Shown one piece after another: positions 54,831 through 63,262 of a stretch of 64,000 bases of DNA (position 1 is the first letter of the stretch; the number at the start of each line of letters is the position of its first letter). The notes beneath the pieces are model-generated. The model searched no databases. It had not been told where the DNA came from and saw only the letters and a list, made by a program, of their open reading frames with translations. The position numbers and the translations under genes were made by a program. The DNA lies in the IMG/VR virus record IMGVR_UViG_3300035123_000008, positions 5,583 to 69,582 of that record; one strand, written 5' to 3'. The stretch comes from a virus.

Positions 54831-55031
54831 CTAAGAACAACAACTTTCTTTTTCATTAAATTTTTCCAACGCTTGTTCATAGCTAAGACAGACCGCGCAG
54901 GCACACTTTCCCGCGCTCTGATGTAGCTTGTAATAAAGAACAGCAAGTCGAGCTAACTCGGAATTCAGTTTCCCATAATCAACTGTCAGCCTTACCAAAG
55001 TATGGTTTGCCTTTACGGATTGCTTCATCAA
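54831..55031 (-). CDS. Small hypothetical protein (CACAVC)
   Basis: Packed ORF. Confidence 0.5.
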   Translation of the reverse strand: MMKQSVKANHTLVRLTVDYGKLNSELARLAVLYYKLHQSAGKCACAVCLSYEQALEKFNEKESCCS

Positions 55032-55629
55032 GCGTCTCCTTGGTGCGAAATTCGGGCTCTATAAACTCTAAGCCTAAGTGGCTGAAAAATAATTCCTCTG
55101 TAGATATGGCTACGATTTGCTTGCATCGGCTACCAGCCCCACATCCTCCCTCTGGTTTCGGATGTTTATGTAAGAGATAACCATCGGCAAGGTGATAGCC
55201 TAATGACTGAGTATACATAGCAATCCCTTTGCTAAACTCGGCTGGTCCTGTACGTATTGTAAGCGCGCCTCCCCAAGATCCAACTTTGGCATAGAAAATG
55301 TCACAACTGATATCAAGCTTCTTATGGCGTAGTTTTTTATAGCGAGGTCCCCAACGCTTGATTTTGTCATCTTTCTTCCACTGCCATTTCCTAGTACCTA
55401 GCAGGGCATTTAATAATTCCTCTAATACATCCGTCTCTTTGGTTTCTATAACTTCACCGAAGAGATTTTTTTCATCATAGGTATTTATGGTGGGAATGAC
55501 AACAATCTCAATATCTTTTACTCGAGGTTTTTTCCTACGAATACTTCCAGCGATCGTAATTTTCTCACACCCTGCTTTTATGTCTTGCAATAGCTCTTTT
55601 GCTAGGGTGCAAGCAGTTAATAAGTCCAT
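54979..55629 (-). CDS. Minimal X-family DNA polymerase (palm + thumb only)
   Basis: IAGSIRR...KDIEIVV...CDIF...LTIRTGPAEF. Confidence 0.85.
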   Translation of the reverse strand: MDLLTACTLAKELLQDIKAGCEKITIAGSIRRKKPRVKDIEIVVIPTINTYDEKNLFGEVIETKETDVLEELLNALLGTRKWQWKKDDKIKRWGPRYKKLRHKKLDISCDIFYAKVGSWGGALTIRTGPAEFSKGIAMYTQSLGYHLADGYLLHKHPKPEGGCGAGSRCKQIVAISTEELFFSHLGLEFIEPEFRTKETLDEAIRKGKPYFGKADS

Positions 55630-57427: not shown

Positions 57428-58393
57428 TTAAAATGCAACATTCAGTTCCGTGAGTACGTGGTAGATGTTGTTGCAAATTGTGACTTGGTCGGAACCAGCA
57501 AATAGTAAACCAAGGGCAACGGGTTCATCGCGCTTTACTATTAGCGAACCAGAATCGCCACCCTTTGATATTGGTCCCGTAACGAATTGATCCTCGAAAG
57601 TTGCAACTTTGCCTCCTCCATATTGAACCTTGACGGTTGCACCTTGCACGATAATTTCCCCCTCAGTGTATTCGGTTGTGCGTCCAGACTTGCGCACCTT
57701 GTCACCAACATTTGCGCGCTCCCATTGGTTAACGGTTCCAGTAATATCTAAGATGGTGTTGGTTACAATCGTATTGTTCAAAGGGATTGCGATAGCTGCG
57801 TCCACCTTGTTCGCAGCTTGTGAAGTTTTGTGAGACTTCAAGCGATGGGTAGACCCGATCAGCTTCGCAAGCGAGGAGAGCAATCGAGCAAAGGAATCTG
57901 CAACAGGACAGGTTGAACCATCCTCAGAGAATACGATCTTTACGAACCTGTATAGGTTCCCAATTTTGTCTCTGTAAGGTTCGCCTCCATCAGCAGGTCC
58001 GGGCTGTAGAATTGGATCTCCATATATTGCATCGTTGCTATTAGCAAGCACATGATTATTCGAAAGTATCATGGTCTTACCATGCACATCGTAAACTAAG
58101 CAACCAAGCGTCCCAGCCGTAATCTTTTCATGTCCGATCGATACGCCTCCGGGGGCAGGTCGAACCTTGCTGGTGTGCGATTGTGGAGTTATTGCCAATG
58201 GAGCGAGGGGTCTGGGTGCAACCAAGGTCCCGACCTCGATCACATCTGTAAAAACACCACGAAAACTTTTGGGTATGAGCTCACTTTCTGCGAGCGCAGC
58301 TTTGGGCAGCTTGCGCTCAACCATAACGACAAGGTCCTCCTTGCCAATACCAGCCCCCACTACGTTTGGATAATCGAACAGTTCTTCATACAT
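57428..58393 (-). CDS. Trypsin-like (S1) serine protease with N-terminal pro-region
   Basis: SNNHV (His), VDAAIA (Asp), GGDSGS (Ser). Confidence 0.9.
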   Translation of the reverse strand: MYEELFDYPNVVGAGIGKEDLVVMVERKLPKAALAESELIPKSFRGVFTDVIEVGTLVAPRPLAPLAITPQSHTSKVRPAPGGVSIGHEKITAGTLGCLVYDVHGKTMILSNNHVLANSNDAIYGDPILQPGPADGGEPYRDKIGNLYRFVKIVFSEDGSTCPVADSFARLLSSLAKLIGSTHRLKSHKTSQAANKVDAAIAIPLNNTIVTNTILDITGTVNQWERANVGDKVRKSGRTTEYTEGEIIVQGATVKVQYGGGKVATFEDQFVTGPISKGGDSGSLIVKRDEPVALGLLFAGSDQVTICNNIYHVLTELNVAF

Positions 58394-58533: not shown

Positions 58534-58763
58534 ATTTCCTCCGTTCTTACAAAGTATTGAACACGGTCCTCTGAGATATTGAGTATTGAGAAGCTAACCC
58601 ACTTCGTAATCAGGTTGCAATTCTGGCACTTAAACCGGATCACACCCACGAAGTCGATCTCGATACCTTCCACTGGTTTCATAACAAACTCAACTCCACA
58701 ACTTTCGCAGTGAAAAGCGAGGTACGTCTTTTCGGTTTCTCCAATAGGTTCAATCGCTGTCAT
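58530..58763 (-). CDS. Zinc-ribbon protein
   Basis: CESC...CQNC. Confidence 0.65.
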   Translation of the reverse strand: MTAIEPIGETEKTYLAFHCESCGVEFVMKPVEGIEIDFVGVIRFKCQNCNLITKWVSFSILNISEDRVQYFVRTEEI

Positions 58764-59820
58764 CTAGCCTCCATTCCTCCTCGCACCATGCAGCGACCCA
58801 AGAGTTGTCATCGTTCATAGCGCAATCAAACCAGCCTCTTAGATCGACGGTTGGGAGTAAAACCGATGCCCCGTAAACGGGTGACTTATGGTACTCCACA
58901 ACGTCAAGCCCCATGTGATACCACTGAAATCTATAGCCTTTCGTTTTGATTTCATATGCTGCTCGAATGTAGTCATCGATGCTGTAAAGATCAATGTCGC
59001 TTATTACATAGTCGGAAGCCAAACGCCAAAGGTCTAGAAGCACTTCGGGTCGCTCGATAACTTCATCTGCAAACCCATCACCCAATGCTCTCAGAACTTC
59101 GATAGCTCGGCGCCCACGGTCAATGTCTCCATCGGGTCTACCAGTTCGGTCTCGTATGTAACAGAGAGCTTCGCTTCCGTCCATGTTGTAGACCTCGAAA
59201 GCGTTCCAAGTCTTTTCCTCATACGTGCTGCCCTTTACTTTGTAACGACCACACGTACCCGAATAGTCCTCCAGCACATTTACTTCAATGCCCCCGATCT
59301 TGTCTACCAGCGCAATAAACCAAGCGAAGGTCGTATAGAAAATAGGTCCATCAATATCCTCGCCAAAGTTCCATGAGAAGGTTCCACGAACACAGTTAAA
59401 CCCGCCCCAAGCATAAGCAGAGTTGATGCGCGATTTCTCCTCCTCCCTGCTATCGGGTGCGCAAGGCACTTCGAGGTAAAGATCACGTGGGATGCTGAAC
59501 ACTTTTATTAAAACGGGTGTGTCGTGGTAAGCCACGATCTTGATATAGATCATAGTGTCGGTATGCTCTGCGACTTGCCCCTCTTCAAAGCGAACCATCT
59601 CATAGTCGCCACCAAGCACCATCATCGAGTATTCAAAAATTGGAGCATTGGCTGTAGCTGTGGGAGGTATAGACGTTATGGTTGGTTCAGGTGTTGGAGG
59701 AAGTGGTTGGAACGGTGTTGATGTTTGTATTGTACCTGTGGGATAGATCAATGTCGGCAAGGGTTTAGATTTACAACCTGCAAGCAATAGTGCCAAAATT
59801 AATAACAATTGTATTCTCAT
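58750..59820 (-). CDS. LCP (LytR-CpsA-Psr) family lipoprotein
   Basis: Lipobox LAGC; HTDTMI, SIPRDL, RINSAY, LVDKIGGIEV, MDGSEALCYIRDR, DIDRGRR. Confidence 0.9.
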   Translation of the reverse strand: MRIQLLLILALLLAGCKSKPLPTLIYPTGTIQTSTPFQPLPPTPEPTITSIPPTATANAPIFEYSMMVLGGDYEMVRFEEGQVAEHTDTMIYIKIVAYHDTPVLIKVFSIPRDLYLEVPCAPDSREEEKSRINSAYAWGGFNCVRGTFSWNFGEDIDGPIFYTTFAWFIALVDKIGGIEVNVLEDYSGTCGRYKVKGSTYEEKTWNAFEVYNMDGSEALCYIRDRTGRPDGDIDRGRRAIEVLRALGDGFADEVIERPEVLLDLWRLASDYVISDIDLYSIDDYIRAAYEIKTKGYRFQWYHMGLDVVEYHKSPVYGASVLLPTVDLRGWFDCAMNDDNSWVAAWCEEEWRLDDSD

Positions 59821-59854
59821 TTTATTCTCCTTGGTTTTAATAACGAACCTTATC

Positions 59855-60067
59855 TTAACCATCAGCTTCTGTAAATTCATAGTCTTCGTTCAACTTAAAT
59901 TCTGGATTATTCATTAAGTCCTGCAAGCAATCAGGACATAAATAGCTCGCGTCTGGAAAATCTCCACAATCGAATCCTCCACAGAATTTACAACCAAAAA
60001 AGACAATGAGCTTTATTGGCTTTTTCGTTTCGTGTTTACTAATACTCCAGCCAGCACATTGATTCAT
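59855..60067 (-). CDS. Small Cys-rich protein
   Basis: CKFC...C...CPDC; GAGGTG SD. Confidence 0.6.
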   Translation of the reverse strand: MNQCAGWSISKHETKKPIKLIVFFGCKFCGGFDCGDFPDASYLCPDCLQDLMNNPEFKLNEDYEFTEADG

Positions 60068-60093
60068 CTCTCACCTCATGGTTATGATAAGCA

Positions 60094-60288
60094 TCAATCA
60101 AAATATTTGTGCCATCTATCAAATGTATCCACGCTTACAGGTATTGCAGAAATAACCCTCATCCGTTGTTGATTGTTTCTTCTATTATGCAACCACACCC
60201 ACGGAGGTTGATTGATAAATTTATTTTCTTTCATGGGCTTCTTTTCTTCGGTTTGCCATTCATAGCAAATAAACCAATAATCGCTCAT
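60094..60288 (-). CDS. Small hypothetical protein
   Basis: GGGAGG SD; stop codon lies in repeat A. Confidence 0.65.
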   Translation of the reverse strand: MSDYWFICYEWQTEEKKPMKENKFINQPPWVWLHNRRNNQQRMRVISAIPVSVDTFDRWHKYFD

Positions 60289-60315
60289 GCTTCCCTCCCT
60301 TGGTTATGATAAGGA

Positions 60316-60822
60316 TCAATCCTCTATAGGGCAGATGCCCAATGTAGCCACTGGATTTTGAGAATCGTCTATTGTGTAACATTTGACATTCATGCCTGCT
60401 AGTGGCTCTTTTCTGCCTGCTATTCTCCTTATTGTGGAAATTAGCAAATCCATTTCCCGGCCCTTGTTTCTTTCCTCTTGATGAATTGCTTCAACCTTTA
60501 TCTCTACTCTGTTCTTGTAAGCAACCAGCAACCCCCATCCCTCATATAAATTCTCTTTTGCAAAGTCTAGCATTTTGGGAGGTACAAGGAAGTATCGCTT
60601 TGCCCCCATCCCCAATCGAGACATGCGCCTAACGCTTTTGAAATGATCATTTCTAAAATCACTCCTTGATGTTTTACATTCTACAAGCGCAGAGAAACTA
60701 CCTGACCACCCGATAGCATCTGGTATTTCAAATCCCGATCCCATCTCAGTAATGACCACTGAACATCTTTTGGTGTTGGCAAGCCACACGCTTGCCCTCT
60801 CTACTAATTCACTATGATTCAT
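60316..60822 (-). CDS. PD-(D/E)XK nuclease-like protein (MmcB-like)
   Basis: IPDAIGW...VECKTSRSDFRND...RYFLVP. Confidence 0.7.
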   Translation of the reverse strand: MNHSELVERASVWLANTKRCSVVITEMGSGFEIPDAIGWSGSFSALVECKTSRSDFRNDHFKSVRRMSRLGMGAKRYFLVPPKMLDFAKENLYEGWGLLVAYKNRVEIKVEAIHQEERNKGREMDLLISTIRRIAGRKEPLAGMNVKCYTIDDSQNPVATLGICPIED

Positions 60823-60846
60823 TCAGCACCTTGGTTATGATAAGCA

Positions 60847-61050
60847 TCATCTACCTACGTGTTCAATCTTGTATCTCCACGCAAGATCAACGCCAGATTT
60901 TGTGAGTATGTTATTACCACTCTCTTCTTTCTCTGCTAGTCCGTGTTCAATCAATAAATCCCTTCCGGCTTTACTTACAAGATCACCATCCCAAACTACA
61001 CCATGCTCTGCTAGTTGTAAAAAAACTTCTATCGCTTGTTTCAATTCCAT
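60847..61050 (-). CDS. Small hypothetical protein
   Basis: GAGG SD; stop codon lies in repeat A. Confidence 0.65.
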   Translation of the reverse strand: MELKQAIEVFLQLAEHGVVWDGDLVSKAGRDLLIEHGLAEKEESGNNILTKSGVDLAWRYKIEHVGR

Positions 61051-61082
61051 CTTCCCTCACTTATGTCTGCTTACGATAAGCA

Positions 61083-61208
61083 TCAATATGGCAACCTTGC
61101 CAGAATCTCATTTAGTAAATCGATAATGTCTAATAGCTTCCAAACAATCCATATAAATTGTCCAATGAAAAAACCATAAATGACATACTTAACTAATTCT
61201 TCATTCAT
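61083..61208 (-). CDS. 41-aa single-TM protein (not in the ORF track)
   Basis: MNEELVKYVIYGFFIGQFIWIVWKLL...; GAGG SD; stop codon lies in repeat A. Confidence 0.55.
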   Translation of the reverse strand: MNEELVKYVIYGFFIGQFIWIVWKLLDIIDLLNEILARLPY

Positions 61209-61589: not shown

Positions 61590-61892
61590 CTATTTCCTTT
61601 CGGGGGCTTCGTCCATGCCATGTTCCATCAATACCTTGCTTACATCACGTAAGATAACAGCATCATCACAACTATAAGTTGATGCTCTTTCCCTGAAAAT
61701 CTTACGCAAGTCAAATAGCAACTGCACCAACGCATCACGCTCGGCTATGAGTGCCTCATGTTCAGTCCACAATGCCTTATAGTGTGCTGTCAAATCATAA
61801 AGACCTATGGCAAGTTCGTCCATGTCGCCTTCGCCAGTTTCCCACAGTTTATAGATGTTCTCAGACTTTCCAACTCTAGGTGGATAGTCCAT
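61590..61892 (-). CDS. Small coiled-coil protein (ERDALV motif)
   Basis: Start moved to ATG 61892 after repeat B (AAAGGAG). Confidence 0.65.
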   Translation of the reverse strand: MDYPPRVGKSENIYKLWETGEGDMDELAIGLYDLTAHYKALWTEHEALIAERDALVQLLFDLRKIFRERASTYSCDDAVILRDVSKVLMEHGMDEAPERK

Positions 61893-61951
61893 CCTCAATC
61901 TCCTTTCGGGTGGCTTCAATCGCCTCTTGTCATGGTTATGATAAGCATCAA

Positions 61952-62107
61952 TCAATCTTTTATTAGCGAATAGGCAATCGGCAATTTTATAATTGGTAGG
62001 GCAATCCAATAAATATCTCTTGTGAAAACATAGGCAATCACGTCAAGAAAGGAACCAAAGACCAGCGCCTTTGCCCAAAAGCTCGGTGGTTCACCTAGAA
62101 ATGCCAT
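61952..62107 (-). CDS. 51-aa hydrophobic protein (not in the ORF track)
   Basis: MAFLGEPPSFWAKALVFGSFL...; begins after repeat B and ends at repeat A. Confidence 0.55.
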   Translation of the reverse strand: MAFLGEPPSFWAKALVFGSFLDVIAYVFTRDIYWIALPIIKLPIAYSLIKD

Positions 62108-62369
62108 CCTCTATTTCCTTTCGGGCGGCTTTCAGCAAGATTGCCCTGAGATTATTCCAGTCTTTCTCCCACAGCATATAACTATTGCCTTCGGGATTGC
62201 GTCTGCCTTTTTCATCCATGATTGCGATAGCGTCAACCAACGCATCACGCTCATCCCTCAATTCTCCAATGGTTTCTACGGCCTTGTTCAAGACTTCTGC
62301 GCCATACTCATCACCCTGTAATAATTGGTTAGTCTCAAAATGTTCAAGCCGTTGAATAATGTCCATCAC
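62091..62369 (-). CDS. Small coiled-coil protein (ERDALV, AARKEIE)
   Basis: Carries repeats C and B. Confidence 0.65.
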   Translation of the reverse strand: MMDIIQRLEHFETNQLLQGDEYGAEVLNKAVETIGELRDERDALVDAIAIMDEKGRRNPEGNSYMLWEKDWNNLRAILLKAARKEIEDGISR

Positions 62370-62696
62370 TCACTCTCCTGCTTCTATTTCCTTTCGGGCG
62401 GCTTCAGAGATTTCCAACCATGCCTTTTTCATCTCTTCTTCGGCTTCTTCGAACTCTATCCTGTCAGGTGAAACTCCAAACCAATGTACCGCCACTTGGT
62501 GTGCCTTGATGTATTCCACCAACGCATCACGGTCGGCCTGTAGCTTCCAGAACTCTTTCAGTATTGCTTTCTCAGCCCTTGTGCCTATATAGTCCCCTGT
62601 TTCTGTAAGTATGCCAGCTAAAACATTGTAGAAATAATCATTTTCTACTTGTGACTCATCCATCGGTAATCTTGTCCCATCATGTAGACAATCCAT
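62370..62696 (-). CDS. Small coiled-coil protein (DRDALV, AARKEIE)
   Basis: Carries repeats C and B. Confidence 0.65.
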   Translation of the reverse strand: MDCLHDGTRLPMDESQVENDYFYNVLAGILTETGDYIGTRAEKAILKEFWKLQADRDALVEYIKAHQVAVHWFGVSPDRIEFEEAEEEMKKAWLEISEAARKEIEAGE

Positions 62697-62898
62697 CTTT
62701 TATTTCCTTTCGGGTGGCTTGTAATTCTTCAACTAATTTGGCAAGTGCATCTATGATTTCTAGGTACTCGTGCGCCTTGGCTTCTTGTGTTTCAATAGAG
62801 CTTTCTAAATTTTTAGCTTCTGTAGCCCAAGATTTTGGGATACCTTTATGCGTTGACAGTTTTTCGCTCAGTTTTTTCTTCATAGAATCCGCTATCAT
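62680..62898 (-). CDS. Small coiled-coil protein (ATRKEIK)
   Basis: Carries repeat B. Confidence 0.55.
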   Translation of the reverse strand: MIADSMKKKLSEKLSTHKGIPKSWATEAKNLESSIETQEAKAHEYLEIIDALAKLVEELQATRKEIKDGLST

Positions 62899-63034
62899 TA
62901 GCCCATTTCTTTAATTGTTCCCAAGTAAATACATCTTCTGGCTCATATTGTGCTTGGATTTCATCAAAGAGATAATCAACGTCCAATTCTGCCGTATCTA
63001 AACATCTGTAATCTATCGTTAATGTTTTACCCAT
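62846..63034 (-). CDS. Small hypothetical protein
   Basis: Start directly after repeat B (AAAGGAG). Confidence 0.65.
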   Translation of the reverse strand: MGKTLTIDYRCLDTAELDVDYLFDEIQAQYEPEDVFTWEQLKKWANDSGFYEEKTERKTVNA

Positions 63035-63061
63035 CTTCTATCTCCTTTCGGGTGGCTTTAA

Positions 63062-63262
63062 TCAATCTAGCCATCTATCATAGGCTTTCATCAATTCTTC
63101 AACGGCTTCCATGATCGTGTTCTCTGATTCTTCATTTGCCCAAAATGTGTAAAGGTGTCCGAGCTTTTCTTCGACAGCGTACCATCTCGCAGCTTCCTTT
63201 TCCTGAGCTTGTTTCCTTTTCTTTTCCTGTTCAGCTTTCCATGGGTTAGCTTGTGGTAACAT
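63062..63262 (-). CDS. Small hypothetical protein
   Basis: AAGGAGG SD. Confidence 0.65.
   Translation of the reverse strand: MLPQANPWKAEQEKKRKQAQEKEAARWYAVEEKLGHLYTFWANEESENTIMEAVEELMKAYDRWLD

Follow-up and report, generated by a model that had tools for sequence, protein, structure and literature searches.

Homology between the small genes of an early gene array in an uncultured wetland phage and those of its distant relatives starts and stops at two short conserved sequences, one in the middle of the gene (repeat C) and one at its end (repeat B), and the shuffled unit is mainly the half-gene, not the whole gene. Related genes break at C and at B, the two sequences keep a fixed geometry, their DNA is conserved at synonymous positions in excess of the homologous flanks, and the genes of the array are not whole-gene paralogs of one another. 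We put at roughly 70% the probability that B and C are boundary sequences at which ordinary homologous recombination shuffles half-genes while preserving the reading frame.

Repeat B and the setting of the microgene array

The window, i.e., the whole stretch of 64,000 nucleotides that was analyzed, is part of a single linear virus record of 71,158 bp (CheckV estimate, 100%), and the metagenome runs that contain the window sequence are wetland samples from 2020, with no RNA data set among those listed; the best-matching run may be the source. The plus strand of the record carries terminase, GH25 lysin, and tail genes, and the B/C array sits in an arm of small minus-strand genes. Also encoded in the window are an LCP-family protein (PF03816) and a trypsin-like protease (58750-59880 and 57428-58393), as well as a small protein matching the palm and thumb of DNA polymerase beta (54979-55629); L011 encodes a protease similar to the trypsin-like one, and the contig of protein P0002 has an LCP gene too, but upstream of its array. 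A Chloroflexota host is a guess, hinted at by the LCP gene with its Pro/Thr linker and by one Gp3-like homologue whose name comes from an Anaerolineales MAG. Scans of GTDB genomes yielded no prophage, the nine matches being chance hits or lying inside host genes; a search of INPHARED gave no meaningful match, IMG/VR searched with the LCP gene gave no confirmed relative, and a PHROGs search of the window genes gave no significant match. L002, L008, L009, L013, and L034 were rejected as relatives, each being a single chance match.

Repeat B, which the initial annotation had described as a module repeated six times, occurs on the minus strand in five copies with 0 or 1 mismatch to the annotated motif, none being expected by chance (0 in 100 shuffles); the sixth copy, for which that count needs qualification, carries a 1-nt deletion. 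The six copies lie within 1.5 kb and no other was found anywhere in the 71,158-bp contig, while B is present in at least 12 other contigs. Read in one frame, B encodes A(T/A)RKEIEDG, with the next ATG inside the Asp-Gly codons in the +1 frame. A shared C terminus, A(A/T)RKEI, had been noticed, and this holds for genes 62680, 62370, and 62091, whereas the copies at 63038 and 61896 are stubs and that at 61590 is frameshifted; that is, full genes terminate in three of the copies, the frameshifted copy makes a fourth, and the remaining two come after the stop codon of another gene as stubs of 15 to 17 codons, presumably remnants of the end of a gene that was replaced. The AAGGA SD is spaced 8 nt from the ATG in four of the six window copies, and an ATG stands at +22 in 15 of 24 copies from the window and other contigs combined. 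B therefore usually provides the SD and ATG of the following gene, as had been proposed; the exceptions in spacing are the copy at 62384, where the ATG follows the SD by 22 nt and is served by an AGGAG of its own, and the copy at 61590, where the next ATG is 12 nt away. Repeat B is the conserved 3' end of a microgene family and overlaps the translation start signals (SD and ATG) of the gene that follows.

The letters of the CC-GAAA-GG mini-hairpin proposed for each copy are present; as a functional structure, however, the hairpin is unsupported because its stem is weak, with only 2 bp and −1.5 kcal/mol, and is broken in 8 of 23 copies (7 of 10 among those found by protein search) with zero compensatory changes. 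No promoter-like site recurs at the B copies (8 were found in the region, compared to 10.5 expected), no terminator-like site was found at them, and an Rfam search of the region gave no match.

The joining of repeats A and B was borne out at 61896-61955. Repeat A is a 17-bp near-palindrome that begins at stop codons, with further copies in the window at 60076-60101, 60298-60323, 60829-60854, and 61065-61090, and it also closes the array of B and C in the distant phage L001/L006 (L006:6187). Repeat A could act as an operator or mark a third junction. The features of the array are listed in Table 1.

TABLE 1 Repeats and microgenes of the B/C array, in window coordinates
Feature	Position	Strand	Remarks
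B copy 1	63038..63058	-	Intergenic, after gene 63062-63262; 15-codon stub; SD 8 nt before ATG at 63034
Microgene, 62 aa	62846..63034	-	Started by B copy 1
Microgene, 67 aa (72 aa with start at 62898)	62680..62883	-	Ends in repeat B; without repeat C
B copy 2	62700..62720	-	Codes end of gene 62680; overlaps SD and ATG of gene 62370-62696
Chimeric microgene, 108 aa	62370..62696	-	Front as P0002; back as P0003, P0004, P0008, P0013, P0047
Repeat C	62517..62537	-	In gene 62370-62696; mid-gene crossover point
B copy 3	62384..62404	-	End of gene 62370-62696; next ATG (62366) served by separate downstream SD
Chimeric microgene, 91 aa	62091..62366	-	Front as P0035, whose back half is unrelated
Repeat C	62235..62255	-	In gene 62091-62366
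B copy 4	62111..62131	-	Ends gene 62091-62366; provides SD and ATG for gene 61952-62107
Hydrophobic microgene, 51 aa	61952..62107	-	Started by B copy 4, ending at repeat A
Repeat A copy, near-palindromic	61930..61955	-	Joined to B copy 5
B copy 5	61896..61916	-	After repeat A and a few leftover family-gene-end codons; SD and ATG of gene 61590-61892
Chimeric microgene, 100 aa	61590..61892	-	Front as P0047 (L032), whose back half is of the 62370 type
Repeat C	61725..61745	-	In gene 61590-61892
B copy 6	61590..61609	-	1-nt deletion, frameshifted; end of gene 61590-61892
Microgene, 80 aa	61340..61582	-	Front as L007 gene (P0020); homology stops at the repeat C of L007

Breakpoints at repeats C and B

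Repeat C comprises the codons of ERDALV and stands mid-gene in three genes of the window. Protein searches brought together about 45 small proteins, encoded on other contigs, in which C is central and B terminal. These proteins were split at C and compared half by half, a strong match being one with z ≥10 in one half and the other half being scored as unrelated at z ≤2.5. All 28 of 28 strongly similar, nonidentical pairs matched in the front or the back half only, never in both; these pairs are not independent and fall into about nine front-half groups and four back-half groups. Each of the three window genes with C has a chimeric partner elsewhere (P0002, P0035, and P0047), near-identical in front and unrelated in back. 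Identity of P0035 to gene 62091 was 15/15 and 14/15 before C and 2/15 after it, and that of P0002 to gene 62370 was 14/15 and 15/15 before C and 2/15 after it. At the DNA level, L032, which encodes P0047, aligned with gene 61590 through C (17/17 identical) and diverged directly after, and its back half aligned with the back half of gene 62370, which was itself found with six different fronts.

Back halves can be recognizable effector domains, since the segment between C and B in P0012 (L012:1449-1688) matches the T7 gp5.9 RecBCD-inhibitor family (PF25708, E = 3e-14; PHROG 4790, E = 5e-14). In unrelated GC-rich phages (L035, L040, L043, L050, L051, L053, L057, and L059), which are without repeat B, a shared front ending in AERDALV codons is followed by different tails; C-type breakpoints may be widespread among phages. 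The motifs ADEVAQLEAEL, LQQAQ, and IERRLNA recur at module borders in the arrays of L004, L006, L014, L017, and L018 and may be additional crossover points.

Exchange at B was seen in both directions. A related back half (60 nt upstream of B, 65 to 70% identical) is followed by unrelated sequence (30 to 38%) among the window, L011, L012, and L018; conversely, L004 and L006 share the same downstream gene (90%) after unrelated upstream DNA (32%), with the switch at B. Genes were thus gained, lost, or replaced at B between related phages. Two contigs from metagenome runs of the same wetland series depart from the window sequence, one (run X2) at C (62238) into a back half of the P0035 type and the other (run X3) at B (62700) into another gene, with the diverging parts translating to portions of P0035; these contigs therefore point to a differently arranged sibling in the same habitat. 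No joint between window copies and no excised circle was found in four low-depth contig sets, in which rare variants are dropped. B is not obligatory: in L032 and L007 the front halves begin with no B upstream, and for some pairs the break lies at a different short motif. Altogether, the results support the earlier proposal of short-homology reshuffling in that B is a junction where neighbors differ between phages. They do not support B as a stand-alone, portable cassette: it forms the coding 3' part of a gene family, at least one more crossover point exists beside it, most of the visible shuffling is intragenic, at C, and some genes move in the absence of B.

Junction DNA and the recombination proposed to act on it

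The codon analysis was restricted to loci found by protein search and not by DNA. In C, the codons CGT (11 of 12 loci; 1.9 expected) and GCG (10 of 12; 2.5 expected) exceeded local codon usage, and in B the same was true of GCC (6 of 6; 1.3 expected), CGA (7 of 10; 1.8), and ATA (9 of 10; 3.2). Synonymous identity was 84% in C (26/31) and 81% in B (21/26), compared to 51% in the homologous flanks (108/212), with Fisher P values against the flanks of 4e-4 and 6e-3, respectively, which are too optimistic because the copies are related by shared ancestry. The three 5' codons of B alone were not significantly different from the flanks (5/7, P = 0.45), and the codon bias of B is owed in good part to the SD and spacer. 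The SD cannot account for the conservation of C codons, C being far from any SD. Variation within B preserves the reading frame, lying at third positions and, as T/A, at one first position.

In the proposed scheme, each gene follows the plan of a variable front half, C, a variable back half, and B, the latter comprising ATRKEIE, the SD, and the overlapping next ATG. B and C are homologies of 15 to 30 nt, each found in many copies among the numerous phages that occur together, and for this reason general homologous recombination, by host RecA or a phage annealing protein and not by a site-specific enzyme, would cross over in them, whether within or between genomes. A crossover from C to C would replace the back half and leave the resulting chimera in frame, and one from B to B would bring in a different next gene while the stop codon, SD, and start are kept. 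The products would be viable and hence accumulate, and repeated exchange would keep the junction DNA uniform, possibly to the benefit of the phage. The longest perfect matches between window copies are 10 to 22 nt for B and 14 to 17 nt for C; minimal efficient segments are 23 to 27 bp for Red-beta and 31 to 34 bp for RecA (PMC3945230). As the window matches fall short of this minimum, single events are probably rare and are seen because they survive.

Alternatively, B and C might be cis-acting sites, bound in mRNA or DNA by a regulator of phage or host origin, as has been suggested for the start-associated sequences (SAS) of mycobacteriophages, with recombination as a by-product. Synonymous codons fixed across distant phages would suit such sites, as would the position of B across the SD, the persistence of two window copies without a full gene in front, and the presence of repeat A beside B and C in L001/L006; we nevertheless consider this reading unlikely, given the uncompensated breaks in the hairpin, the lack of an Rfam match and of any promoter or terminator excess, the frame-preserving variation of B, and the occurrence of the same front halves without B upstream. 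It is also quite improbable that B and C simply reflect protein-level selection on an old helical domain, as its most conserved ends (a coiled-coil heptad and a helix cap) with the SD added, and that the chimeras come from rare illegitimate joins, not targeted by homology, that survive only at domain borders. ATRKEIE does occur inside unrelated host proteins and AERDALV in unrelated phage proteins, and a similar helix terminates many back halves, but selection at the protein level predicts no fixed synonymous codons in C, and several independent pairs break at the motif within a few codons. Recent tandem duplication of whole genes, which the initial annotation had named as the explanation that would refute its proposal, has in its favor the regular spacing of the window B copies (215 to 338 nt). 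It was refuted, its probability being practically nil: DNA identity among eight array genes was 0.34 to 0.54, compared to 0.33 to 0.50 in shuffled controls, so that high full-length identity is absent, and neighbors vary at B.

A dedicated site-directed system, with a recombinase cutting at B and C or a Chi-like signal raising exchange there, would account for the uniformity of the junction DNA. The contig does encode a Gp3-like (PF18897) protein (L021:41-1249, outside the window), whose predicted structure, made with an alignment, matches that of the phiC31 recombination directionality factor over 179 residues (Z, 14.4; rmsd, 3.7), with no Rad52-type annealing protein among the matches listed; the Gp3-like protein may bind ssDNA or promote annealing. 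At the opposite end of the contig from its gene is a DUF932 gene. Against such a system, neither a tyrosine integrase (PF00589) nor the recombinase domain of serine integrases (PF07508) was matched in the contig, in 27 viral loci that carry a Gp3-like gene, no B+C array was found on the strand of that gene at distances of up to 10 kb, and different recombination genes lie beside different arrays, i.e., ERF (L017), Rad52 (L014), and, near another array, a tyrosine integrase. B and C are moreover asymmetric, and a Chi-like signal was rejected as their 7-mers are not over-represented. We therefore regard a dedicated system as very improbable. Searches of the contig for Rad52, RecT, ERF, and AAA_24 found none. 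Because the contig lacks a detected integrase and no enzyme is linked to the arrays, we infer that exchange at B and C is probably the work of general homologous recombination.

Relation to known systems and meaning for phage microgenes

The shuffling had been put forward as a possibly undescribed mechanism, which is too strong because modular phage evolution through short linker or boundary sequences has been described (Susskind and Botstein, as summarized in PMC2839356; PMC3029335). As with those sequences, homology between genomes starts and stops here at a short conserved sequence, and short conserved junctions would let general recombination swap unrelated neighbors with expression signals kept; a coding C terminus held in common is likewise found in Island3 gp67/gp68, where it spans 18 residues (PMC3029335). 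B differs from linker sequences in that it recurs and alternates with a second, intragenic boundary, half-genes being the main unit exchanged.

The likeness to the PeSL of T4-type phages that had been drawn holds for gene replacement at a repeat between related phages: in both cases crossovers use a motif that recurs between the ORFans of a hypervariable region. It does not extend to anatomy. A PeSL is an intergenic sigma70 promoter with a terminator stem-loop, for which mini-circles have been demonstrated (PMC2839356), whereas B is coding; mini-circles are a feature of the PeSL, and B is not one because it has neither promoter nor terminator. Like the SAS of cluster K mycobacteriophages (PMC3203893), B is an asymmetric repeat over the SD before starts, located in a nonstructural arm and conserved beyond the bases that pair with 16S rRNA. 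SAS, however, are found for the most part between genes, in gaps of >50 bp, and remain tied to the same gene families (PMC3203893); B mostly overlaps coding sequence and changes partners, and the same genes occur with and without it. For a site-specific, integron-like cassette array, no match to a cognate recombinase was found in the contig. The B/C array thus falls short of the definitions of PeSL, SAS, and integron-like arrays.

Closer at the protein level is the mosaic Ea22 of lambdoid phages (PMC7093339), an early accessory protein in which a coiled coil connects the N-terminal domain to a variable C-terminal one and a conserved +GE motif stands at the terminus. Here, by contrast, both halves vary and a single array contains several members of the family arranged head to tail; Pfam Ead_Ea22 was not among the matches listed for 10 full-length family proteins and gave none for the C-terminal parts scanned. 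The adhesin gp38 of T4-type phages (PMC3157838) also undergoes intragenic swaps at or near conserved motifs that give in-frame chimeras, but gp38 is one orthologous virion gene, and the present genes are many nonorthologous microgenes. What is distinct is that intragenic and gene-end junctions alternate in head-to-tail microgenes and are conserved at the DNA level across distant phages. Our literature search found no paper on such alternating junctions or on combinatorial phage microproteins, which does not by itself establish that there is none.

A bolder reading, which we consider less likely than not, is that a shared two-junction grammar of C, B, and perhaps more is actively maintained across a wetland and sediment phage pool as an open combinatorial library, in which front and back halves, some of them host-interaction domains, would be mixed into translation-ready microproteins at a rate giving standing variation within populations. 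The array offers a natural case for the origin of phage ORFan microgenes, with unrelated halves joined at fixed in-frame points and a junction peptide that is the SD and start of the next gene as read in the upstream frame. As B and C are short and defined, linker and illegitimate recombination can be told apart directly by synonymous recoding, and such microproteins should be annotated half by half.
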